Origin: an uncultured Gammaproteobacteria bacterium
Lineage (GTDB): Bacteria; Patescibacteriota; Microgenomatia; Woykebacterales; RBG-16-39-9b
Assembly (NCBI GenBank): GCA_964360785.1
Contig: CAYHXX010000001.1
Coordinates: forward strand, 346,907 to 410,906
DNA length: 64,000 nucleotides
Reading direction: 5' to 3'
The translations under genes were made by a program, and so were the position numbers. Positions 2,138 through 47,825 of this stretch are shown piece by piece. Within the stretch, counting starts at the first letter, position 1. Every line of letters begins with the position of its first letter. The notes under the pieces are model-generated. The model was not told where the DNA came from, did no database searches, and was given only the letters and a program-made list of their open reading frames with translations.

Positions 2138-2572
2138 TTGCTAGAATTAGTTCATATGTTAAGCAAAAGTGATAGTGAAACCAAAGAATATGCTAGAAAT
2201 CTAGTCAGGGATCTGAAAGGACCAACTGTCCTTGCGTTGGATGGAGAGCTTGGAGCCGGCAAGACTACTTTTGTTCAGGGGTTAGCCGAAGAGTTGGGAA
2301 TTGAAAAAAGAGTACTGTCGCCAACTTTCGTTTTTCTCCGCAGTTACAATTTGGAAAATCCGAAGTTCAAGAAATTTCATCACTTTGACCTTTACCGGTG
2401 CAGGAGTTTGGCAGATGTCAAAAGTATTGGCTTTGAGGAAGTGCTTGGAGAAGAAGGTTCTTTGGTTGTGATCGAATGGCCAGAAGTAGCCCGAGTTTTA
2501 CTTCCAAAAAACACAAGATGGATCAAGATTAGAAAAGTAGGGGAAAACGAACGGGAAATTGAGGTTAGTTAA
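2138..2572 (+). CDS. tsaE: tRNA threonylcarbamoyladenosine biosynthesis ATPase TsaE (YjeE)
   Basis: P-loop GELGAGKTT, SPTFVF motif and about 145 aa length typical of TsaE. Confidence 0.75.
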   Translation: MLELVHMLSKSDSETKEYARNLVRDLKGPTVLALDGELGAGKTTFVQGLAEELGIEKRVLSPTFVFLRSYNLENPKFKKFHHFDLYRCRSLADVKSIGFEEVLGEEGSLVVIEWPEVARVLLPKNTRWIKIRKVGENEREIEVS

Positions 2573-29757: not shown

Positions 29758-30639
29758 TTACTCTTTTCTGACTATTGTCCAGATATTATCACTACCCAAC
29801 CCTTCTTCGGTTGCTTGCTTTAAAGTTGTTAGTAAAAACGTTATTTCTTCGAGGTCGTAAGAACTGTCAAGTTGTTTTTTAATGTATTTGCCAATCTGGT
29901 TTAATTTTTGTTGGTTGGGAAAAATTAGCAGAAGAATAGGGAATTTTCTGTCCAAGCCGCTAAATCTATGTTTCCCCCCTTCACTTTGATTAAATTTAAT
30001 ATATTGGTCTACTTTATACCTGAGAGCATATCTTGGAACACCTGGGTCAAAGAGTTGCAGAAAGTAAGTTTGAGAGCTATTGTCTTCTTGATCAGGATTA
30101 ATTAATTTTTCAAAGTAAATATCTGGAATAATTTCCTTGATCTTTTCAAAATCGTCTTCTTTGTATAAATCCATCTTTTCAGTTATCCAAAGTTCTGTTT
30201 TTGTAGCGAACTGATACTCTATGTTAGTACTTTTCTTTTGTTTTTCCTTGAGCTGGATATAGAAGTCAAAGAGGCTGATGCAGTGATCAATAAAAGTTTG
30301 GGAGGCGTGTTTATCCTCATAGAACTTTTTAATAAGCTTAAAGTCCAGTTTTTCATTATCTGCCTGGTAAGCTTCACCCTTTTCAAAACGTGCCCATAAG
30401 ATGCCGTTATTCGCCAGGTAATAGATGGCAGGTTTGGTATTTTCGAGTAGCTTGTGGGAATATATCCTGCCTAAATAACCTTTTTCCACTAAATCTTTAA
30501 GCCAGACGTTAATTCTTTTTGGATCCTTGTGGTCAAGAATCCTTTGTATTTGTTTCCGGTTAATAAACCGAAACCTGTAAACAAGATCAACTATCTCTTT
30601 TTGTTTTTCAGTTATCTCGGGACGTTCTTTGTAGTTCAT
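29758..30639 (-). CDS. Replication-relaxation family protein (winged-helix N-domain)
   Basis: N-terminus ITEKQKEIVDLVYRFRFINRKQIQRIL matches the replication-relaxation (PF13814-like) pattern. Sits beside the palindromic ori-like site. Confidence 0.45.
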   Translation of the reverse strand: MNYKERPEITEKQKEIVDLVYRFRFINRKQIQRILDHKDPKRINVWLKDLVEKGYLGRIYSHKLLENTKPAIYYLANNGILWARFEKGEAYQADNEKLDFKLIKKFYEDKHASQTFIDHCISLFDFYIQLKEKQKKSTNIEYQFATKTELWITEKMDLYKEDDFEKIKEIIPDIYFEKLINPDQEDNSSQTYFLQLFDPGVPRYALRYKVDQYIKFNQSEGGKHRFSGLDRKFPILLLIFPNQQKLNQIGKYIKKQLDSSYDLEEITFLLTTLKQATEEGLGSDNIWTIVRKE

Positions 30640-30849
30640 AAGATCATTCCAGTTTATTAATAGTTATTTAATTGGCAGATTTCTAGATTTAGGACAGGAG
30701 GTTTATTAGTTGGGCAGGGAAACTTAAAGGAGCAGAGGTTTAGGGGATTATACACATTTACTCAGCAACATTACTACTTCTCTTCCTTTTACCTTGTAAA
30801 AGGGTAAAGACCGGAAATTAAAATTCCTTTAATAAACCTAATATAAGCT

Positions 30850-30904
30850 CGTACGTAGCCACGACCCGTGTCCTAGACAGTTAGGACACAGCCCATGCGT
30901 ACGT
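30850..30904. promoter_or_regulatory. 55-bp imperfect palindrome; putative recombination/oriT/operator site
   Basis: CGTACGT-(11)-GTGTCCTA-(6)-TAGGACAC-(8)-CGTACGT. Followed by AT-rich iterons, with ATATGTATAT at 30938 and 30961. Confidence 0.45.
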
Positions 30905-30986
30905 GCGAACTATTTTTACTAATTGACAACTATACACATATGTATATATAATATATACAGATATGTATATGTAACTTGCCTAACTC

Positions 30987-31316
30987 TTGGATATGAAAGT
31001 ACTAGATTCGGAACAATTGGAAATTAGACCTAAACAACGAGAATTTAAACTCCTAGAACAACAAGATGTCTACGAAAACCTCAATCAACATCTTTCCGAA
31101 CAAGAAAAGGAACAAAGAATCATTCTCGAAGCTCGAGATATCTTAGGAGAAGCTGCGGAAAACCTAACTGATGAGCAAATTTGCAATTTAGTAAGTGAGA
31201 TTCAATATCTGGTTGATACTTGGTTAGAGGAATTTGAAACAAAGGTTTATGGGGGTAAGACCTTAAGTGAGTTACTACACCTAAATTATCATGAACACAC
31301 CGTTTCCAGCAAATAA
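30987..31316 (+). CDS. Hypothetical acidic protein upstream of and overlapping the recombinase (possible directionality/accessory factor)
   Basis: TTG start. Overlaps the recombinase start by 26 nt. No motif recognised. Confidence 0.35.
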   Translation: MDMKVLDSEQLEIRPKQREFKLLEQQDVYENLNQHLSEQEKEQRIILEARDILGEAAENLTDEQICNLVSEIQYLVDTWLEEFETKVYGGKTLSELLHLNYHEHTVSSK

Positions 31317-32838
31317 TATTTCAGAACCAAGAAAAGCTGTTATCTATATCCGAGTTTCTTCTGAGGAACAAGTAGAAAACTTTTCTTTGGGAACACAGGA
31401 GGAAATATGCCGCAGAGATGCGAAATATAAAGGTTATGAAATAGCGGAAGTATTTAAGGAAGAGGGTCGCTCAGCAAAAACTATTATTGGAAGGCCAGTG
31501 CTACTTGAAATGCTCGACTTTTGCAGAAAAAACAAGAAAGATCTTCAAGCGGTTTATGTTTACCGACTTGATAGATTATCCAGGCAAACTTCCGATTACC
31601 TAGCAATAAGAAAAAGGCTTGCCGACTATAATATCGCTATTCTTTCCGCAACTGAACCAACAGGAAATTCACCAACAGAAAAATTACTTGAAACTGTTCT
31701 GGCAAGTTTTGCTCAACACGATAATGACGTGCGAAGTGAAAGAACGAAAAACGGTATGCGAGCAAGGTTTTTATCAGGCCTGATTACAAACAAGTTAACC
31801 GCTGGGTATGTTAATCAAGGTGGCTATGCTATTAAAGATTCGGAAAAGTTTGAAACTATTAAAAAAGCTTGGGACTTAATGGCAACGGGAACAAAGAGTT
31901 TAAGAGAAATAAGAACTATTTTAAGTTGCTGGGGAGTTGAGATAAAACCGCACGCGATTCACGCAATGTTCCACAATAAGTTCTACATGGGCATATTAAG
32001 CTCTCCAAAATACCCAGAGGAGGTTCGTGGTCAGCACTCTCCTATGGTTACTGAAGAGCAGTTCTATAAAGTACAAGCAATTTTGGACGGTCGCGATACA
32101 AACAGGTTGGTTATGCCACGGAAAAGCAGAGATAACAAAGACTTTCCTCTGAGAAGGATCGTTAGATGCGGTAGATGTGGCACTCCGTTTACTGGAGCCA
32201 AAACCAAAGGGAGAAGTGAATACTATTCATATTATTTTTGTCGAAAAAGATGTGTTAATACTTCGGTGCCAGTTGAAACTTTAGACAAGTCATTAGGAAA
32301 CCTGCTCCAAATTCTTAACCCTACTGAAAACGGAATAAAACTTTACTGCAACGCCCTTATCAAAACCTACAACAAGAAAATGTTTCGACTTGAGAAAACT
32401 AAGAATGGAGCTGACGAGGAGATCAAGAAGCTTTTTGGACTCCGACAGACTTTAGTTGAAAAAAACCTAGCTGGAACTTTTTCAGATGAGATCTTTAAAG
32501 AACAGAACGCCGTTATTGAAGAAAAACTAATAGCTGCTCAAGCCTCAAAAAATGACGCTCTCATTGATAAGTACGATATCGCCGCAATTGTAGCCTTTAT
32601 CGAAACTAAACTAGCCGATATTGCCCAAACCTATTTTAGCTCGACTCTTAGCCAAGCTCGCTGCCTTCTCGGTTCGATATTTCTCTCGGGATTGAGTTGG
32701 GACTATCCTGGTTGTTCGAACCGCGGTATTAGCCCGATATATCAAGGTATTATTGATGTTGAAAGTAAGGGTGTTCCCTTTGGTGACCCCGGCGGGATTC
32801 GAACCCGCGATCTCTTGGATGAAAACCAAGTATCCTAA
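31291..32838 (+). CDS. Large serine recombinase (integrase)
   Basis: Resolvase catalytic domain AVIYIRVSSEEQ, recombinase domain and zinc ribbon CGRCGTPF...CRKRC. The ORF reads through into the tRNA-Glu gene, so the last about 19 aa are tRNA-encoded. Confidence 0.8.
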   Translation: MNTPFPANNISEPRKAVIYIRVSSEEQVENFSLGTQEEICRRDAKYKGYEIAEVFKEEGRSAKTIIGRPVLLEMLDFCRKNKKDLQAVYVYRLDRLSRQTSDYLAIRKRLADYNIAILSATEPTGNSPTEKLLETVLASFAQHDNDVRSERTKNGMRARFLSGLITNKLTAGYVNQGGYAIKDSEKFETIKKAWDLMATGTKSLREIRTILSCWGVEIKPHAIHAMFHNKFYMGILSSPKYPEEVRGQHSPMVTEEQFYKVQAILDGRDTNRLVMPRKSRDNKDFPLRRIVRCGRCGTPFTGAKTKGRSEYYSYYFCRKRCVNTSVPVETLDKSLGNLLQILNPTENGIKLYCNALIKTYNKKMFRLEKTKNGADEEIKKLFGLRQTLVEKNLAGTFSDEIFKEQNAVIEEKLIAAQASKNDALIDKYDIAAIVAFIETKLADIAQTYFSSTLSQARCLLGSIFLSGLSWDYPGCSNRGISPIYQGIIDVESKGVPFGDPGGIRTRDLLDENQVS

Positions 32839-32856
32839 CCACTAGACGACGGGGCC
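32781..32856 (-). tRNA. tRNA-Glu (anticodon UUC), CCA encoded
   Basis: Folds as a cloverleaf: acceptor GGCCCCG/CGGGGTC, anticodon stem CTTGG/CCAAG, loop TTTTCAT giving anticodon TTC, T-loop TTCGAAT. Similar to E. coli tRNA-Glu. Confidence 0.85.
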
Positions 32857-37123: not shown

Positions 37124-37969
37124 TTAATAGTAACTAGTCGGAATATGGTTCTTTTCGATATATTCTCTCTTGCAAGCCTCTGAACAGAAATAATATTTCT
37201 TACCTCGAAAATCCAATCTTGTAGTTTCAGATCTAACCTCAACACTGGTACCACAATTGGGATCCACCACCAGATCTTCAGAATTCTTAAACCTACCATC
37301 CTCCATCCACATTACCCGATCGGCAATCTCCATCACTCTCTGATCATGACTCACTACCACAACTGTCTTTCCCATATTCTTCGCCACTGCCTGCAGCAAC
37401 CGCATCACTTCACGCCCGCGTTGGGAGTCGAGATTGGCTGTCGGCTCGTCTGCCAAAATAAGTTTTGGGTCATTTGCCAGGGAACGTGCAATCGAAATTC
37501 TTTGCTTCTCCCCTCCAGAAAGACGTTCTGGGGTAAAATCTTCTCTTTGGGAAAGGCCAAACGCCTTAAGCAGACCCTGAGCTTTCTTTCTGGCAATATC
37601 TTTCTTGACTCCAGCTAGCCCCAACGGAATCAAAACATTCTCCAGTGCAGTTAGATTGCTCAATAGATTGAAGGCTTGGAAAACAAAACCGATCTTATGC
37701 AAACGTAGGAACCGTCTGTTTCTCTCTGGCATGGAGCCAACATCTTCCCCATCGATAAAGATCGAACCGGAACTCGGCCGCAAAAGTAAACCGGCCATGG
37801 TTATCAAAGTAGTCTTACCACTGCCTGAAGGACCCATGATCAAAAGAATTTCTCCGCCGCGTACAACCAAGTCGGTGTTATCGACAGCCCGAACTTCAAC
37901 TGCTCCAACACCATAAACTTTTGATACATTTTCAAGTTTTAGTACTTCTGAGTTCTCTTGATTCATCAT
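37124..37969 (-). CDS. ABC transporter ATP-binding protein (MacB/LolD-type) with C-terminal Cys-rich metal-binding tail
   Basis: GPSGSGKTT, LSGGEKQRISIAR and ILADEPT motifs. The C-terminal about 50 aa carry PNCGTS...YYFCSEACK (TRASH/YHS-like). Confidence 0.75.
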   Translation of the reverse strand: MMNQENSEVLKLENVSKVYGVGAVEVRAVDNTDLVVRGGEILLIMGPSGSGKTTLITMAGLLLRPSSGSIFIDGEDVGSMPERNRRFLRLHKIGFVFQAFNLLSNLTALENVLIPLGLAGVKKDIARKKAQGLLKAFGLSQREDFTPERLSGGEKQRISIARSLANDPKLILADEPTANLDSQRGREVMRLLQAVAKNMGKTVVVVSHDQRVMEIADRVMWMEDGRFKNSEDLVVDPNCGTSVEVRSETTRLDFRGKKYYFCSEACKREYIEKNHIPTSYY

Positions 37970-41158: not shown

Positions 41159-41202
41159 CTGACTCCCTTCAGTCGCTACATTCTACCACTTCTTACCCAA
41201 AC

Positions 41203-41228
41203 AAAAAGCGGCCTTGCGGTCGTTTTTT
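41203..41228 (-). terminator. Intrinsic terminator (A5-hairpin-T6) downstream of the DUF4342 gene
   Basis: AAAAAGCGGCCTTGCGGTCGTTTTTT with stem GCGGCC/GGTCGT including G-U pairs. Confidence 0.45.
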
Positions 41229-41268
41229 GAAATAGCAGTATAGCAGATTTGCAAACCTACGGTCAAGC

Positions 41269-41526
41269 CTACTTACGCTCAACCGAAATCGTGCATTCTG
41301 TTACCAATGCTGTGATTGCACCAATGGCGGCCAGCACAGGAGCGAGAACCACACCAACCACACCAACGGTGAGTGGAAATTCGGCGATAGTTTTGCCTTC
41401 TTTTGAAGTAATAGTTATCTTGCGAACATTACCTTCTTTGATAAGCTCTTTAATTTTTTCAGTAACATCTTCCCCTTTGACTTCGAACTTTTCCTGCCTG
41501 CCGGCAGGCTGGTCAGTTTTTGCCAT
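41269..41526 (-). CDS. DUF4342-family protein
   Basis: ITITSKEGKTIAEFPLTVGVVGVVLAPVLAAIGAI pattern characteristic of DUF4342. Confidence 0.55.
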   Translation of the reverse strand: MAKTDQPAGRQEKFEVKGEDVTEKIKELIKEGNVRKITITSKEGKTIAEFPLTVGVVGVVLAPVLAAIGAITALVTECTISVERK

Positions 41527-41527
41527 G

Positions 41528-42073
41528 TTATTTTTTGTCTCCTATTTTTACAAAAGCCAGTTTCTTCTGGCTCACTATTGCTTTTACAAGTTCAAAACTT
41601 CCAAAGAATACCCCTGTATAAAACAAATCGCCTGCCATCGTATTGCGGAAGAAAGGAATTGCCGCACTGTAGCAAGCCACCAAACCTGCAAAGGTTTTTG
41701 GGTAAAGTGAACCCGCGAGCCAAATGGCAAGATTCGTAATAATAAAGAAAAGTACTGAAGCAGTGATTGAAGCCAAGACTATATTTCCAATACTTTTGCG
41801 ATTTCGCAACCAAAATCCGATCAAAACAATCAGAGCAAAACTACCATACACAGTCAGTCTTGAAGTAATTGAATCAAAGCCAATGAAAAAATCTGACAGG
41901 ACCATTGCCGCTAGTGGCAAGACAAGTGCGGTTTTCTTGTTTAGATAAGAACCACCAAAAAGGGCCATAGCCCCGATCGGTGCGAAATTCGGGGCGTGTG
42001 GGACAAGCCGAATAAACGCTGCTGCGATCACAAAGATTAAGGGGTTTGAAATTTTCTCGAAGTATTTTTGCAT
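41528..42073 (-). CDS. Small polytopic membrane protein, ECF-transporter S-component-like (possible cobalamin CbrT-like)
   Basis: About 180 aa with 5-6 TM helices. Sits between the DUF4430 and DUF4342 genes, as in B12 ECF loci. Confidence 0.4.
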   Translation of the reverse strand: MQKYFEKISNPLIFVIAAAFIRLVPHAPNFAPIGAMALFGGSYLNKKTALVLPLAAMVLSDFFIGFDSITSRLTVYGSFALIVLIGFWLRNRKSIGNIVLASITASVLFFIITNLAIWLAGSLYPKTFAGLVACYSAAIPFFRNTMAGDLFYTGVFFGSFELVKAIVSQKKLAFVKIGDKK

Positions 42074-42138
42074 AACTTACTGGGAAGATATAGGCTGGAA
42101 CTTAGTATAACAAGTCCAGCCCATACCAACAACCCTCC

Positions 42139-42558
42139 TTAGTAGGTAGCTATCTCCCAACCAATAGTGTCACCTGTGACAATAGTGTAAGAGCCAGCTC
42201 CAACCTTGGCCTCCTGACTATTTACCAAGAATTTCCAATACTCTTTCTTAGAGTCGCTAGCCAATCTTCCATTGATACTAGTAATAAAGGCCATTTCGCC
42301 TTCACCAGATTTCTCTATTGTGACTACCGCTTCTGTAGCTTCCAATGCTGTTTTTCCAACTACATTTTTTGCCTGGTATTCCTTTTCTGCTCCATCAGCT
42401 TTAACAGTGAAAGTTACTGCTTCAGTTGCTTCTTGTGTAGTACTAGATGAAGATTTCGTTGCTTCTTTGTTGTTTTGATTTACAAAATAGTAACCGCCAC
42501 CAAGAAGTACTACCAAGGCAGCTATAACTAGAATAATATTGCTTCGAATTTTGTTCAT
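42139..42558 (-). CDS. Secreted DUF4430-like (transcobalamin-like) protein
   Basis: Likely true start is MNKIRSNIIL at 42558 (AGGAAG RBS, signal peptide). C-terminus AFITSINGRL...WKFLVN...GDTIGWE resembles DUF4430. Confidence 0.5.
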   Translation of the reverse strand: MNKIRSNIILVIAALVVLLGGGYYFVNQNNKEATKSSSSTTQEATEAVTFTVKADGAEKEYQAKNVVGKTALEATEAVVTIEKSGEGEMAFITSINGRLASDSKKEYWKFLVNSQEAKVGAGSYTIVTGDTIGWEIATY

Positions 42559-42625
42559 GAGATAACTTCCTAAAAAATTAACTATTAATAAGGCAGAAAC
42601 CAAAAAACCAACCTGCTAAAGGTTG

Positions 42626-42760
42626 GTCGATTACATACTCATCGGCACCTCCTTTGCTCGAAGGAATTCAAAGGCTGGGTTCTGGGTTTACAGTAGCGGC
42701 ACTCCCCTGGAATCGCACCAGGCTTCACCAAAAATCCTTTGATCTAAATTTTAAAAGTAG
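42626..42760 (-). ncRNA. Candidate cobalamin (B12) riboswitch in the 5' leader of the DUF4430 operon
   Basis: Minus-strand GGTGAAGCCTGGTGCGATTCCAGG resembles the GGGAAGCCGGTGAAAATCCGG core. GTGCCGCTACTGTAAACC resembles the CCCGCCACTGTAACC B12 box. Preceded by promoter TTGACA-18-TAAAGT at 42765-42794. Confidence 0.45.
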
Positions 42761-42857
42761 TAAGACTTTAGCCCAAAGCGGGAAAATTTGTCAACAGTTT
42801 TTTGTAAATTTGCACTCTAGTGAGATAATTTGATCAGAATCGAGAGCGCTAAGGAGG

Positions 42858-43241
42858 TTGGTCGTGGCTAACGATATGCCCATGGTACGTGTACCTGCCG
42901 GTATATGGACTCTAGGTGTGAGCTCGAAACGAACTCCCTACCCCATTTTCTCTTGGGGAATAGGAGAATTTCAGAATGGCGACAGCCCACTCTGGGCTTC
43001 GGCAATACGCCGCGTTTACTGTTGGGAATGGCCTGGGCAAGAACCGCTTTCCTTCGCAGATCCCGACGGAGTACTTGCCCAGATCGCAGATCACGGGTTT
43101 TCCACACCACCCCTGATTTACGAGGTTGGAGACGTCCTGAGCGAGTTCAGCCCAAAGATGCAAGGCAAGGAGTTTGAAGAGATGGGAGAACTGTTCGCGG
43201 AGATCGAGCAACGCTGGCGAGAACTAATCCGACAGCTCTGA
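42858..43241 (+). CDS. Hypothetical protein (GC-rich orphan)
   Basis: AAGGAGG RBS. The real start is probably GTG at 42864. GC above the flanks. Confidence 0.35.
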   Translation: MVVANDMPMVRVPAGIWTLGVSSKRTPYPIFSWGIGEFQNGDSPLWASAIRRVYCWEWPGQEPLSFADPDGVLAQIADHGFSTPPLIYEVGDVLSEFSPKMQGKEFEEMGELFAEIEQRWRELIRQL

Positions 43242-43303
43242 GAAAAAGCTGATCGAGACACCAGCTGGGCTCCGAACAACCGTTCCGAGCTCAGCCACAT
43301 TTA

Positions 43304-44269
43304 TTAATAGTAAACGGTTTTGGTAAGGTGATAGGGTTTATCGATCTTTGTTTTATCTTGACTTTCTAGCCACAAAATTCCCAGAAAATCCACATAGTTC
43401 AGCTTTGGGTATTTGGGCCTAAGTTTCTCAACAGTTAGATAACTGGCCATTAGCATATTGGCACGGATTTCAATCTCTTCTCCACTGGCTTCAGCCAACT
43501 CAACCCGATTGTCCACTTTTTCCGCTAAAGGCTTGCTGTATTTCAAAAATCCCAAAGTGCGCATAATTGCTGGTATTTTGTAGTCTGCAAAGCCCAAAAT
43601 TTCATCTGTTTTCGGCAGAGGTTTGTCAAAATAAGCAACATCTGTCAAAAAAACTTGGGTCTTTTTGTAGAAAAGTACACTATTACCTTTGTATTTTGGA
43701 ACATCGTAAAAACCAGCAAACTCAGTTGATAAACCTTCCATCATTCTAAAAGCGTCTGTACGATACTCTTCAAAAAAATTGTGAAAATGGCCTTGATACT
43801 TCGCCACAAGAACTTCACCAATCTTTTTCATCATTTCGTAGCGCTCTTTCAAAAGCGGAATTTCCGGCTCGCCTGCATAGATTTCACGCGTCTTTTCTAG
43901 AGTCAAATTAGCAAGAAAATTGCCGTCAAGAATGTTGTTTCCCTGCTCTATTGCCCGCTCAAAGGCAGCAATATTTGCCCACCAACCATCTAGATTTTGG
44001 CCTCGAAATGAAATTGTCCATTTCTGGGGATAGCCCCAGTAACAAAAGGCTTGATTTGCCAGTAAAAACAAAAAATCTATTTCGTCTTCCTTGTTAGGTT
44101 GAGGTTTGTAGCCCAGTGGATAGGCATTGCTACCTTTGGTCCAATGGATAATTTCTTGGGAAGCAAAACCTTTGACATAGCGATCAATCGCTTCCTCGTC
44201 AATGGAAACGAAACTACTCTGCTCAACAACAGATTTTATTGAGTCGAGGATTTTTTGTTTAGAAAGCAT
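43304..44269 (-). CDS. Queuosine salvage family protein (DUF2419/Qng1-like)
   Basis: About 320 aa. FLFLLANQAFCYWG and other blocks typical of DUF2419. Confidence 0.5.
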   Translation of the reverse strand: MLSKQKILDSIKSVVEQSSFVSIDEEAIDRYVKGFASQEIIHWTKGSNAYPLGYKPQPNKEDEIDFLFLLANQAFCYWGYPQKWTISFRGQNLDGWWANIAAFERAIEQGNNILDGNFLANLTLEKTREIYAGEPEIPLLKERYEMMKKIGEVLVAKYQGHFHNFFEEYRTDAFRMMEGLSTEFAGFYDVPKYKGNSVLFYKKTQVFLTDVAYFDKPLPKTDEILGFADYKIPAIMRTLGFLKYSKPLAEKVDNRVELAEASGEEIEIRANMLMASYLTVEKLRPKYPKLNYVDFLGILWLESQDKTKIDKPYHLTKTVYY

Positions 44270-44539
44270 CTAATGTTTGCTAGTTATCTTTAATTTATTT
44301 ATTCTAACATCCTCGATCAACAGGTCTCTATTCTCTGGAATAAAGGGGATGGAAGGATTTACATAATCAGCTTTCCTTAGGTTACAGCTTAAACAGGAAA
44401 TAACCCAAGTCCAAGGTACATCAGCATACGCCCTAAATTTTCCTTTGGGTATTAAATGGTCTGTTGTTCCAATGTTTGAAGATGTGAAAGTTTGACCACA
44501 ATATTCACAACTCTTATTATCATTTATTGTCCAAAACAA
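44270..44539 (-). CDS. Free-standing HNH endonuclease
   Basis: CEYCG...DHLIPKG...CLSCNLRKAD HNH/zinc-finger pattern. Immediately downstream of nrdJ. Confidence 0.65.
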   Translation of the reverse strand: MFWTINDNKSCEYCGQTFTSSNIGTTDHLIPKGKFRAYADVPWTWVISCLSCNLRKADYVNPSIPFIPENRDLLIEDVRINKLKITSKH

Positions 44540-44547
44540 TAATTACC

Positions 44548-47139
44548 TCAACATTCAGAATGGCCGCACGAGTAGCACTTCTTACAACCTTCTTCATAAA
44601 CAAAGCTGGCGACACCACATTTTGGGCAGATGTCCCGGCGACTTGGTATTTTTCCAATTGTCGGAATTGCCGAAAGTTGCATTGTCACACCCGTTGACTC
44701 ATCTTTAGTTTCCTCGGTTGATTCACTAGCTTCCTTGGCAGTAGCAATTACTGCGTGACCATTGCCGTTGCCATTACCGTTTAGTTGTGCGTGTCCATTG
44801 CCATTTTGGAGCGAATGACCGTTGCCGTTTGTAAGTACCGCAGCATTACCATTGGCTAGTTTTGCTTCGGTTACTGCTGGATAGGTGCTTTCCTTTCCAG
44901 AATATTCGGACAGTACTTTGCTGACGGCATCAGCAAGTGAATGGATACGATCTGCTCCAAAGCCTCGGGCCGAACTACCACCGATTCCGGAAAGCTGGTT
45001 TACTACCTGCTGGATGACCTCAGTTGGAGCGTAGTTTGACGGGATTCTTAGTGCCAGTGATATCAGACGACCGATTGCTTCGGCGTCGGCATAAATATCA
45101 GTCCCCGCTTTTCCAACGTTGATGAAGACCTCGAAAGGATTGCCTTGCTCGTCTTCGTTTATCGTCACAAAAGCGTGCCCGACTGGAGTCGCAATTCGAC
45201 GAGTGATACCTCGCAGGTTGTCTGGTCGTTTGCGCAGATGTGCTGGAACTGCGGCTGCAACTGCTTCTTCTGCCTTTGCCTCTTTTTTATCATCTTTGTG
45301 GGAGAGTACTCCTTCACGAGAACCATCCCGCATGTAGGTCACCCCTTTACAACCAAGATCATAGGCGTCCATATACAAACGGCGAACTTCCTCAACCGTA
45401 TGAGCGTTTGGCGCGTTCACAGTTTTGGAAATGCTGCTGTCGGTGTAGTCTTGGACCAAAGCTTGAACCTTGACGTGTTCTTCTGGGGTCAGATCGTTGG
45501 CTGAGACAAAATATGCTGGTGCTTTCTCAGTATCTGGATTTTGTTCCTTCCAAGCCTGATAGAGTGGGTGATACATTGTCGATTCGCCAGTGCGGTCGCG
45601 ACGCACCATTGCAAAGTCATAGACTGGTTCGATCCCTGAAGAAACTCCGGATACCAGAGAAGTAGTCCCAGTTGGAGCTTGGGTCAAAAGCACAGCGTTG
45701 CGAATACCGTTTTTGGCAATCAAATCACGAACTTTTTGAGGGAGTTTCTTGATAAACCACCCTTGCAAATATTTTTCTTTATCAAAGTTTGGAAACGCAC
45801 CTCTTTCCGCTGCCAATTCAGCTGAAACTTCGTAGGCACTGTCTCGGATCGTTTTGTAGATTTTTTCAATCACTGGTTGGGCCTGGTCAGAACCATAAGC
45901 AAGTTTCATCTTGATCATAGCGTCTCCAAGACCCATGGTTCCAAGTCCGGTTCGACGAATACCCATCTGCTGCTTCCGATTTTCAGGGAAATAGTAACCA
46001 GTCGACTCGATGACATTGTCCATCATTCGAATCGCAATTTTTACTTTCTCTTCAAGATCAGCAAAGTCAAACTCCCCGTTTTCATTGACAAAAGCAGAAA
46101 GATTAACTGCACCAAGATTACAAACTGCCCAAGCTCCAAGCGGTTGTTCACCACAGGGGTTGGTGGCAATCAGTTTTTCAAAATACCAAGTGTTGCTTCT
46201 TTTGTTTGAGCGTTCGATAAAATGTAGCCCTGGCTCGGCGGATCGCCATGCAGACTGACAGATTTTCTCCCAGACAGCAGCTGCTTTTACAGTTTTGTAC
46301 AGGACAACCTTCTTGCCCGCAGCCTTCCACTTATCCATATCACCATCCCAAAGCTTGTCATAATCCGGTTCAGCTAAGTCAGGGTAATAGAGATCCCAAT
46401 CTTTGTTGTTTTTCACTGCGTCCATGAAACCATCAGAAACACAGACTGAGAGATTAGCCCCATTTATTCTAGTTAAATCTTCTTTGACTGTAATGAATTC
46501 TTCAACGTCGGGGTGCCAATCGTTGAGCATGAGCATCAAAGCCCCGCGTCTGGTCCCTCCTTGCTGGATAACGTCATGGGTGGCCGTAGAATAAAGCTCG
46601 GCCCAGTTAGTTGGCCCAGAGCTAGTACCGTTGACTTTCTTGACTCTGGCCCCACGTGGACGCAAAGAAGAGAGGTTGATGCCCACACCGCCGGAGCGCG
46701 ACATGATATCAACCATGAGTTTTAAATTATCGATTATTCCGTTGCGTGAGTCGTGTGGGGAAGGAATGACAAAACAATTATAGAAAGTTACTTCATAGGG
46801 AGTCCCGGCTCCAGAAAGCACCCGACCACCGGGAACATATTTAAAATCTTTCAAAGCAGAGTAAAACTTCTGGGTCCACTCTTTCTGAAGTTCTGGAGTT
46901 TTTTCGACCTGGGCTAGACCAGCGGCAACTCGAGTCCACATCTGCTCTGGGTGAGCCTCGATTGACTTACCTTCATCATCTTTCAAACTGTAGCGATCTC
47001 GGAAAACTTTGGCGCGAACACCTTCAAGTTGGGTTTGCTCAGAATCTGTGATCAAGCTCTCGAGCTTTCTTTGCAAAACAATTGAAAAGCGGAACTCCTT
47101 TCCTTGGGATTTCTTTGATTTAGAATTTCCGCTACTCAT
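44548..47139 (-). CDS. nrdJ: Class II (adenosylcobalamin-dependent) ribonucleotide reductase NrdJ
   Basis: ATNPCGEQPL catalytic Cys loop. Overall collinearity with NrdJ. C-terminal Zn ribbon CPKCG...CYSCGH. Confidence 0.85.
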   Translation of the reverse strand: MSSGNSKSKKSQGKEFRFSIVLQRKLESLITDSEQTQLEGVRAKVFRDRYSLKDDEGKSIEAHPEQMWTRVAAGLAQVEKTPELQKEWTQKFYSALKDFKYVPGGRVLSGAGTPYEVTFYNCFVIPSPHDSRNGIIDNLKLMVDIMSRSGGVGINLSSLRPRGARVKKVNGTSSGPTNWAELYSTATHDVIQQGGTRRGALMLMLNDWHPDVEEFITVKEDLTRINGANLSVCVSDGFMDAVKNNKDWDLYYPDLAEPDYDKLWDGDMDKWKAAGKKVVLYKTVKAAAVWEKICQSAWRSAEPGLHFIERSNKRSNTWYFEKLIATNPCGEQPLGAWAVCNLGAVNLSAFVNENGEFDFADLEEKVKIAIRMMDNVIESTGYYFPENRKQQMGIRRTGLGTMGLGDAMIKMKLAYGSDQAQPVIEKIYKTIRDSAYEVSAELAAERGAFPNFDKEKYLQGWFIKKLPQKVRDLIAKNGIRNAVLLTQAPTGTTSLVSGVSSGIEPVYDFAMVRRDRTGESTMYHPLYQAWKEQNPDTEKAPAYFVSANDLTPEEHVKVQALVQDYTDSSISKTVNAPNAHTVEEVRRLYMDAYDLGCKGVTYMRDGSREGVLSHKDDKKEAKAEEAVAAAVPAHLRKRPDNLRGITRRIATPVGHAFVTINEDEQGNPFEVFINVGKAGTDIYADAEAIGRLISLALRIPSNYAPTEVIQQVVNQLSGIGGSSARGFGADRIHSLADAVSKVLSEYSGKESTYPAVTEAKLANGNAAVLTNGNGHSLQNGNGHAQLNGNGNGNGHAVIATAKEASESTEETKDESTGVTMQLSAIPTIGKIPSRRDICPKCGVASFVYEEGCKKCYSCGHSEC

Positions 47140-47357: not shown

Positions 47358-47825
47358 CTAGCTAACTTGTCCTTTATCTTTAATCAAACTTTTGACTTCT
47401 TTTTCAAATGTTTCCAAATCGTCGAACGAACGGTAAACCGATGCAAAACGAATATAAGCAAGCTCATCAAGTTTCTTCAAACGCTTGAGCACTATATCAC
47501 CCATGTCAGCTGATGGTATCTCGATCGAATCTCTTTTGCGAAGCTCCATTTCAATCTCATCAACTGCTTTCTCGATCTGGTCCAGAGTTACTGGCCTTTT
47601 CTCGGTGGCCTTGAGCATCCCAGTCATCAGTTTCTTGCGATCAAACTGTTCTCGACGCCCATCCTTTTTCAAAACGATCAAATCAACCATATCCGTACGT
47701 TCGTAGGTGGTGAATCTCTTTTCACACTTGAGACACTCTCGGCGGCGGCGGATAGAGCCAAGATCCTCACTGTCACGTGAGTCAAGAACTGAGGTGTCGT
47801 AATAACTACAATACGGACATTTCAC
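47358..47825 (-). CDS. nrdR: Transcriptional repressor NrdR
   Basis: MKCPYCSYYDTSVLDSR zinc ribbon and ATP-cone domain. Confidence 0.85.
   Translation of the reverse strand: MKCPYCSYYDTSVLDSRDSEDLGSIRRRRECLKCEKRFTTYERTDMVDLIVLKKDGRREQFDRKKLMTGMLKATEKRPVTLDQIEKAVDEIEMELRKRDSIEIPSADMGDIVLKRLKKLDELAYIRFASVYRSFDDLETFEKEVKSLIKDKGQVS

Follow-up and report, generated by a model that had tools for sequence, protein, structure and literature searches.

What controls the three-gene DUF4430-DUF6580-DUF4342 operon of a bacterium of the Candidate Phyla Radiation (CPR, Patescibacteria), and what does this operon provide to its host? The operon is encoded on the minus strand of a 64,000-nt stretch of contig CAYHXX010000001.1 (hereafter the window, with positions counted from its first letter). 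A sequence-only reading of this DNA had proposed a cobalamin riboswitch in control of a B12-scavenging module with a functional link to NrdJ, the class II, adenosylcobalamin (AdoCbl)-dependent ribonucleotide reductase (RNR), and this general proposal was supported. We consider it likely that the operon transcript opens with a class-II (RF01689-type) leader that serves as a transcriptional OFF switch for B12 uptake, which feeds NrdJ. An OFF switch by which B12 shuts down its own uptake follows standard regulatory logic, and the aptamer adds a new member, below the Rfam threshold, to a class that is already known.

The leader aptamer and its homologues

The two motifs quoted in the sequence-only reading were present on the minus strand, with GGTGAAGCCTGGTGCGATTCCAGG at 42729-42706 and GTGCCGCTACTGTAAACC at 42702-42685. 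The complete aptamer comprises 76 nt (42668-42743, minus strand) and has the RF01689 architecture of a class-II cobalamin riboswitch, consisting of a P1/P3 stack, the P4 hairpin CCUGG/CCAGG, P5 with a GCC loop, the B12-box-like segment GCCGCUACUG (42700-42691), and P6. The short element carries no class-I peripheral extension. The sequence-only reading had suggested a check with RF00174, but a scan of the whole window at the Rfam gathering thresholds returned tRNA only and reported neither RF00174 nor RF01689. In permissive mode (401-nt search), the best member of the cobalamin clan was RF01689, which was matched over its full length (model positions 1-81) with 33.3 bits (E 3.4e-6) and outscored the overlapping matches to other clan families in the leader. 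The assignment as a cobalamin aptamer was kept, while the family had to be changed to the class-II family RF01689.

For comparison, a sample of 80 genome loci encoding DUF6580 homologues (numbered with the prefix L) was used, 18 of which were scanned with Rfam at the curated thresholds. The leader is conserved, as a same-strand riboswitch of the cobalamin clan was found upstream in eight of these 18 homologous loci, including RF01689 in L001, L002, L004, and L007, RF00174 in L014 and L019, and RF01482 in L016. The orthologous leaders of L001, L002, L004, and L007 exceeded the RF01689 cutoff with 40.4, 45.6, 41.5, and 39.1 bits, respectively. A first covariance model, seeded with the window and these four curated matches, found 59 aptamer matches in 48 of the 80 loci. 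Fifty-five of them were located on the DUF6580 strand, and the remaining four precede minus-strand DUF4430 genes.

Within the 58 distinct aptamer sequences, 86.6% of the cells were paired compared to 61.6% in shuffles, and 305 double-sided changes were counted compared to approximately 100 in shuffles, with such changes present in 18 of the 22 pairs. When the partners were slid against each other as a control, pairing fell to 29-53%. The four-way-junction structure (P1/P3, P4, P5, and P6) is thereby backed by covariation. Since the first model contained the window itself, a leave-one-out model (R2) was rebuilt from 25 homologues only, with the window excluded. With this model, the window leader reached 78.3 bits (E 8.6e-22 in a search of the whole window), and because the next-best match in the window reached only 10.8 bits, we regard the predicted aptamer at 42668-42743 as genuine and as one that the Rfam threshold misses. 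All 22 model pairs can form in the window except for one U-C at the base of P3, and the seed-invariant U-G-C-C-G and A-C-U-G of the L5/B12-box core are intact at 42702-42691. The leader RNA would be expected to bind cobalamin. The GGAA/UCU motifs of class IIb (PMC11260477) are missing from the junctions J3/4 (UGAAG) and J6/3 (AAC), a weak hint that the aptamer belongs to class IIa.

Expression platform and the leader mini-ORF

The leader is preceded by the sigma-70-type promoter that had been read from the sequence (TTGACA, 18-nt spacer, TAAAGT; 42765-42794, minus strand). It reached 10 of 12 matches in a consensus scan, with a predicted start at approximately 42758, and an alignment with relatives revealed that the TTGACA box and a -10 box resembling TAAAGT or TAGAGT are kept in the leaders of L001, L007, L165, and L092.

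The aptamer is followed by the hairpin UUCCUU-CGAGCA-AAGGAG (42649-42666, minus strand). Class-II switches need a stem-loop that presents L13 (PMC5028336), and the CGAGCA hairpin fits this P13/L13 element, being the presumed kissing-loop partner of L5. Across the 79 distinct regions that follow an aptamer, a helix-closed loop of the CGAGCA type recurs in 53, on 28 different stem sequences, and the stem covaries. In some relatives, the 3' strand of P13 leads straight into the AUG of the gene, which is the known translational design of class-II switches (PMC5028336). The window and 11 related leaders instead show P13, then GGAGGUG, a variable spacer, and a terminator. Here, the strand GCAAAGG-A-GGU (42647-42657, minus strand) forms the 5' strand of an antiterminator, as it can pair either with the 5' strand of P13 or with the 5' arm and loop of the terminator. 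The latter partner is ACCAACCUUUAGC at 42627-42615 (ACC-AA-CCUUU-A-GC), and the duplex amounts to -9.2 kcal/mol in the window and to -6.1 to -12.4 kcal/mol across the 12 leaders (RNAduplex). The complementarity is kept in all 12 window-type leaders through sequence changes such as CGCAAA/UUUGCG in L013 and GCAAGG/CUUUGC in L001.

The terminator itself had been overlooked in the sequence-only reading. It consists of GACCAACCU-UUAGC-AGGUUGGUU and a U-tract (42602-42628, minus strand), and the terminator scan returned 9 pairs and a 5-nt loop for the hairpin at 42628-42606, with the U-tract extending to 42602. Compensatory variants were found in L007 (CCGACC/GGUCGG) and L013 (CCAGC/GCUGG). An automatic classification of the expression platforms misfiled several leaders and was used qualitatively only. 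In L092 (518-700), two tandem terminators follow P13, and the second embeds the Shine-Dalgarno (SD) sequence of the gene (AAGGAGG) in its 3' arm; this platform appears to be a combined transcriptional and translational variant.

With these elements, the switch would operate as follows. If cobalamin is bound, L5 of the aptamer would dock on the CGAGCA loop of P13 as a kissing loop and thereby lock the purine-rich strand GCAAAGGAGGU within P13. With P13 locked, the hairpin GACCAACCU/AGGUUGGUU and its U-tract would form, and transcription would end at approximately 42602, ahead of the genes. If cobalamin is scarce, P13 would be free, GCAAAGG-A-GGU would pair with the 5' arm and loop of the terminator, and RNA polymerase would read through. 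The operon would then yield a surface-tethered B12-capture protein with a transcobalamin-type DUF4430 domain, and DUF6580, a membrane protein with the fold of an energy-coupling factor (ECF) S-component, would carry B12 over the membrane to feed the AdoCbl-dependent NrdJ encoded 2.5 kb away.

The env8 hydroxocobalamin riboswitch and other class-II switches (RF01689; PMC5028336) share with the window leader the compact four-way-junction aptamer without the class I P6 extension, the conserved L5/B12-box segment, and a separate P13 stem-loop with L13 presented to L5. Env8 places the ribosome-binding site (RBS) within the 3' side of P13, and some relatives of the window leader do the same. The two differ in the P1-P13 linker (7 nt in env8, approximately 1 nt in the window) and in the score, which for the window is approximately 3 bits under the Rfam cutoff. 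Furthermore, an antiterminator and an intrinsic terminator come after P13 in the window, with a predicted transcriptional readout in place of direct occlusion of the gene's RBS, and a 3-codon open reading frame (ORF) is placed between P13 and the terminator. While env8 originates from marine plankton, the window host is a CPR bacterium.

Several observations speak against the proposed switch. The RF01689 score of the window aptamer is below the gathering threshold of 36.5 bits, and the whole-leader fold is no stabler than shuffles (z = 0.45). In the truncated transcript, the pairing of the P1 3' strand with segment 3, P13, and the antiterminator are within approximately 1 kcal/mol of each other, and the minimum free energy (MFE) structure of the full platform retains the terminator even with P1 open. 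As they do not discriminate between the states, the thermodynamics of leader and platform were dropped as evidence. The linker is considerably shorter than that of env8, and since L5 and L13 are nearly invariant, covariation cannot support the kissing loop. The sub-threshold score, the unexceptional stability of the leader fold, and the terminator retained in the platform MFE would also fit an aptamer that is a decayed, non-functional relic, with the operon expressed constitutively or attenuated by the leader terminator independently of B12. We consider this very improbable, given that 21 of the 22 model pairs are formable, that the invariant B12-box and L5 positions are intact, and that the leave-one-out model recognises the leader with such a high score. 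In addition, aptamer, P13, and terminator are kept with compensatory changes in close relatives and therefore point to purifying selection and not to decay.

A different question is whether the ON state requires a ribosome. The SD sequence GGAGG (42652-42648), whose strand is at the same time the 3' strand of P13, is followed by a 5-nt spacer and the mini-ORF AUG-AGU-AUG-UAA (42642-42631; complete element 42631-42652, minus strand). This arrangement is kept in eight distinct leaders (window included), all of which have a perfect SD (AAGGAGG), a spacer of 5-6 nt, an AUG followed by A, and a length of 3-4 codons. Relative to the terminator stem, the stop falls at -2 to +3 nt. Each of the three stop codons occurs, whereas the peptides are unconserved (MSM, MSN, MNL, MSVS, MNKI, MKH in two leaders, and MTN). 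With a shuffled spacer, the chance of an in-frame stop was 0.19-0.36 per leader, which gives a joint probability of approximately 1e-4 over seven leaders if shared ancestry is ignored.

For the same riboswitch and operon, the kissing loop might accordingly gate the SD of a 3-4-codon leader ORF. At low B12, a ribosome would initiate at AUG 42642 and sit at UAA 42633-42631, where its downstream footprint of approximately 12-13 nt would cover the 5' arm of the terminator (42628-42620), so that the terminator cannot form. This would be a translational class-II switch made transcriptional by a mini-ORF, and it could act alongside the RNA antiterminator. We regard this ribosome-dependent ON state as possible, though doubtful. 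It is favoured by the conserved SD, spacer, AUG, length, and stop position around an unconserved peptide, by the low joint shuffle probability, and by the SD-AUG geometry, which is that of the relatives with P13 directly before the AUG of the real gene. Moreover, the mini-ORF leaders have weaker antiterminators (mean of -9.0 compared to -11.3 kcal/mol; one-sided rank test approximately 0.04, phylogeny ignored). However, among the leaders with the same platform, L007, L094, and L083 keep GGAGGUG without the AUG of the mini-ORF, and L013 has an AUG without a stop before the terminator. The GGAGGU is also explained by its pairing with the ACC of the terminator 5' arm, the leaders are phylogenetically related, which overstates their independence, and the kinetics are demanding, as the ribosome must load within approximately 45 nt of RNA polymerase travel to the U-tract.

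As a precedent for a B12 riboswitch that gates an upstream ORF (uORF), ppe2 of M. tuberculosis shares a class-II-like B12 riboswitch and an SD-masking platform that controls a short uORF and not the main gene directly (PMC11260477). In ppe2, the uORF and the main ORF share an AUGA overlap, and the uORF drives the main ORF through termination-reinitiation (PMC11260477). The mini-ORF of the window, in contrast, has 3 codons, ends approximately 70 nt before the main AUG, and abuts the intrinsic terminator, and therefore any effect would be exerted via masking of the terminator and not via reinitiation. Such masking resembles classical ribosome-mediated attenuation, e.g., at pyrBI. The geometry of leader-ORF attenuation is present in eight leaders, and four leaders with the same platform have no closed AUG ORF.

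The operon proteins and the proposed B12 import

Downstream of the proposed class-II OFF switch, the gene order and the Pfam families DUF4430 and DUF4342 were borne out by a Pfam scan. The first gene (42139-42571, minus strand) comprises the RBS AGGAAG (42571-42566) and a coding sequence for 139 aa (42558-42139), which matches PF14478 with 56.2 bits (cutoff 23.8 bits, E 4.9e-15, residues 68-135). An N-terminal hydrophobic anchor or signal is followed by a Ser/Thr-rich linker and the C-terminal DUF4430 domain, and because of this anchor and linker the product is suggested to be an extracytoplasmic, surface-tethered B12-capture protein. Its earlier description as transcobalamin-like agrees with the Pfam DUF4430 match and with the best PDB sequence match, the C-terminal domain of Transcobalamin-1 (4kki), which is weak (E 0.02). 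TCN proteins end in a DUF4430 domain (PMC4350170), and this C-terminal beta-domain (PDB 4KKI) is shared with transcobalamin, intrinsic factor, and haptocorrin. In contrast to these proteins, the window protein has the beta-domain only, carried on a membrane anchor and linker.

Several close relatives showed toroid additions or fusions near DUF4430 (L165:667-2490, L163:118-1935, L164:503-1729, L175:1-944, and L177:1-967). In some of them, a gene for an alpha/alpha-toroid protein of approximately 400 aa (SQHop_cyclase_C/prenyltransferase-like), which is missing in the window, stands beside a longer DUF4430 protein, and in others a single protein of 660-690 aa matches both families. The combination recalls the two-domain layout of transcobalamin with its alpha6/alpha6 barrel and beta-domain. 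The idea that BtuH of Bacteroides carries DUF4430 was dropped, as the respective paper makes no mention of DUF4430 and states that the B12 domain of BtuH is without known homologues.

Between the DUF4430 and DUF6580 genes, a hairpin of approximately 17 bp with an extended -10-like loop was identified (42087-42127, minus strand). RNAalifold with 8 relatives predicted 17 pairs, 7 of them with compensatory changes, and a loop that keeps TTGnTATA(C/A)T. This hairpin may stabilise the mRNA or serve as a processing site and so set the ratio of binder to transporter, or it may mark an internal promoter. A small ORF with a strong SD and AUG in the same spacer of the window was rejected, as it is unconserved in relatives and the hairpin is the conserved element.

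The second gene (41528-42073, minus strand) encodes a six-helix membrane protein of 181 aa. It had been described as an ECF S-component-like permease, and with regard to the fold this description holds: the predicted structure is a six-helix ECF S-component, and the best structural match is the B12 transporter BtuM. In Pfam, however, the protein matches PF20221 (DUF6580) only and no named ECF S-component family. The DUF6580 profile has a single, marginal PDB sequence match (E 0.009), the 182-aa membrane chain of 6FNP (ECF-CbrT), which we take to be CbrT from its size and its matches to the S-component families PF12822 and PF07155. The alignment passes through the R...PN...P motif. Based on this predicted structure, DUF6580 would be the cobalamin-translocating subunit.

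Judged by its sequence, DUF6580 is placed outside both the BtuM and the CbrT family and appears analogous to the two. BtuM has an essential Co-ligating Cys80 in loop 3 (PMC6072759). This residue of the solitary, S-component-like BtuM from Thiobacillus denitrificans (PDB 6FFV, 8OVV) has no counterpart in DUF6580, where the only Cys column in 82 sequences is position 134 (52% conserved) in the last predicted helix (residues 128-168) and not in loop 3. The identity between BtuM, which is mostly proteobacterial, and DUF6580 is 12%, with no match at the sequence level. A candidate ligand residue in DUF6580 may be His26, which is 96% conserved in the 82 sequences within the motif RxxPHxxNxxPI. The CbrT of L. 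delbrueckii is placed in PF12822 and the window protein in PF20221. CbrT requires the EcfAA'T module, as solitary CbrT does not complement, and it also carries cobinamide (PMC5997447).

Two further points from the operon count against the proposed regulation and function. The -10-like intercistronic hairpin could mean that DUF6580 is also expressed independently of the riboswitch, and the Pfam scan of approximately 60 ORFs in the 64-kb window, which is part of a contig of approximately 497 kb or more, found neither an ECF module (CbiQ/EcfT, EcfA) nor a pduO adenosyltransferase. The search for ECF A and T components suggested by the sequence-only reading hence gave none among the window ORFs, and the only ABC ATPase of the window (37124-37969) pairs with a MacB/FtsX permease. 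DUF6580 may act alone or together with an ECF module encoded elsewhere in the genome.

These findings bear on whether the riboswitch is real but the operon imports no cobalamin, with DUF6580 carrying a cobinamide-like precursor or an unrelated vitamin and DUF4430 serving another role at the surface. We consider this improbable. In its favour, DUF6580 falls outside the BtuM and CbrT families, literature searches for DUF6580 returned nothing, and even CbrT carries cobinamide in addition. Nevertheless, many lineages have DUF6580 next to or downstream of a cobalamin-clan riboswitch, and in a high-GC group it neighbours a riboswitch-controlled btuB-like gene. Moreover, its partner is a transcobalamin-type domain, and NrdJ is syntenic. 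Cobalamin riboswitches overwhelmingly control B12 transport, B12 synthesis, or B12-independent isozymes, which also argues against a different substrate. A description of the DUF4430 and DUF6580 pair was not found in the searchable literature, and none of the three operon proteins has an NCBIfam model.

The uptake of cobalamin is further in line with the gene context. In iterated hidden Markov model searches, DUF4430 adjoined DUF6580 in 61 of 81 sources, and the order of riboswitch, DUF4430, and DUF6580 recurs over dozens of Patescibacteria loci. Of the B12-scavenging operon that had been proposed, these two genes recur with the riboswitch, but DUF4342 is no general member of the module, as it follows DUF6580 in just 2 of 81 genome loci. 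The DUF4342 gene of the window (41269-41526, minus strand; 85 aa, Pfam E 7e-28) starts 1 nt past the DUF6580 stop. Nearly all close relatives (62-87% DUF6580 identity) contain it, with both genes overlapping or abutting. The family is a very widespread, highly conserved protein of approximately 80 aa, and the predicted beta-alpha-beta-beta-alpha-beta fold gave no informative structural match. We regard DUF4342 as a passenger or accessory specific to this lineage.

The imported B12 probably serves NrdJ (44548-47139, minus strand; TIGR02504 with 566.8 bits compared to a cutoff of 399.95), which was the sole RNR among the approximately 60 window ORFs scanned, as previously stated. The gene for NrdR (47358-47825) and a thioredoxin reductase gene adjoin it. 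The proximity of NrdJ to the operon, likewise noted before, is syntenic in relatives: in L174, nrdJ is located directly upstream of the same leader and operon, and in L178 a single small SET-domain gene lies between them. In the window, an 89-aa HNH endonuclease gene (44270-44539, minus strand) begins 8 nt past the nrdJ stop and is followed by a Q_salvage gene (43304-44269, minus strand). Since both are absent in L174, where nrdJ stands directly before the riboswitch, they are insertions between nrdJ and the B12 operon. The C-terminal part of NrdJ contains a low-complexity Asn/Gly/His-rich insert, NGNGHSLQNGNGHAQLNGNGNGNGH, ahead of a Cys-rich, zinc-ribbon-like tail. A comparable cluster is nrdJ-cbrS-cbrT-pduO of the B12 auxotroph L. 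delbrueckii (PMC5997447), where a small S-component-fold protein is also encoded near a class II RNR; this cluster includes pduO, whereas none was found among the window ORFs scanned. In L. rhamnosus, a DUF4430 gene adjoins the class II RNR gene rtpR (PMC9963975).

Combining the preceding observations, we tentatively consider a wider reading, to which we give a rather low probability. Here, the class-II riboswitch would gate a 'landing-pad' mini-ORF that masks the terminator, and DUF6580 would be a third, Cys-independent family of B12 S-components and the main B12 route of CPR bacteria, possibly using His, maybe ECF-free, and fed by the membrane-tethered transcobalamin-type domain.

Related loci, neighbouring features, and significance

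Cobalamin riboswitches were also observed at other genes of the sampled loci. In L090 (1357-2111) and L091 (1443-2117), a class-II cobalamin riboswitch directly precedes a PduO-type adenosyltransferase gene, whose identity Pfam confirmed for L090. In a high-GC metagenomic group (L112, L114, L121, L134, L153, and others; approximately 2260-2370, minus strand), DUF6580 and a riboswitch-controlled gene encoding a BtuB-like TonB-dependent receptor are divergently oriented, an association that appears to be of the same kind as the one that first suggested BtuM. Together, the associations with PduO, BtuB-like receptors, DUF4430/DUF6580, and nrdJ point to a B12 regulon. Microgenomates-type loci contain a second cobalamin riboswitch 500-700 nt downstream of DUF6580, which controls proteins of 360-500 aa (L041:5031-6231, L018:5140-6735, L032:5038-6650, L059:5052-6470, and L028, L035, and L045). 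Those scanned had no Pfam match, and two that were searched had no PDB relative and were mutually unrelated.

The end of the operon had been credited with a strong terminator after DUF4342. At this position, we found only a modest, interrupted hairpin (41202-41229, minus strand) with A6, an interrupted GC stem, a GCAA loop, and U5, which is absent from the terminator-scan list and has a z-score of 0.23 in the fold of 41195-41268. On the other side of the operon, the 470 nt at 42830-43300 between the riboswitch promoter and the queuosine-salvage gene contain no convincing ORF and show no similarity to the loci of relatives. We asked whether this segment represents a known RNA or a pseudogene derived from the 230-aa gene that is located upstream in L168, but tblastn, blastn, Pfam, and Rfam gave no match, and both ideas were rejected. 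Farther away, a Replic_Relax relaxase-like gene and a large serine recombinase gene (29758-32856) abut the only tRNA gene of the window (32784-32856, minus strand), and this region is probably an integrated mobile element.

With regard to riboswitch annotation, genuine class-II cobalamin switches of these genomes escape the curated Rfam cutoff. If true, the mini-ORF mechanism would be a compact natural coupling of a translational riboswitch to an intrinsic terminator. The mini-ORF platform deserves experimental tests, and so does the proposed Cys-independent S-component. The locus also offers a testable function for two uncharacterised Pfam families, DUF4430 and DUF6580, which stand behind cobalamin riboswitches in dozens of lineages. 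CPR bacteria have minimal genomes and obtain cofactors from other organisms, and the locus described here represents a concrete, regulated B12 route that would serve the synthesis of DNA precursors via NrdJ.

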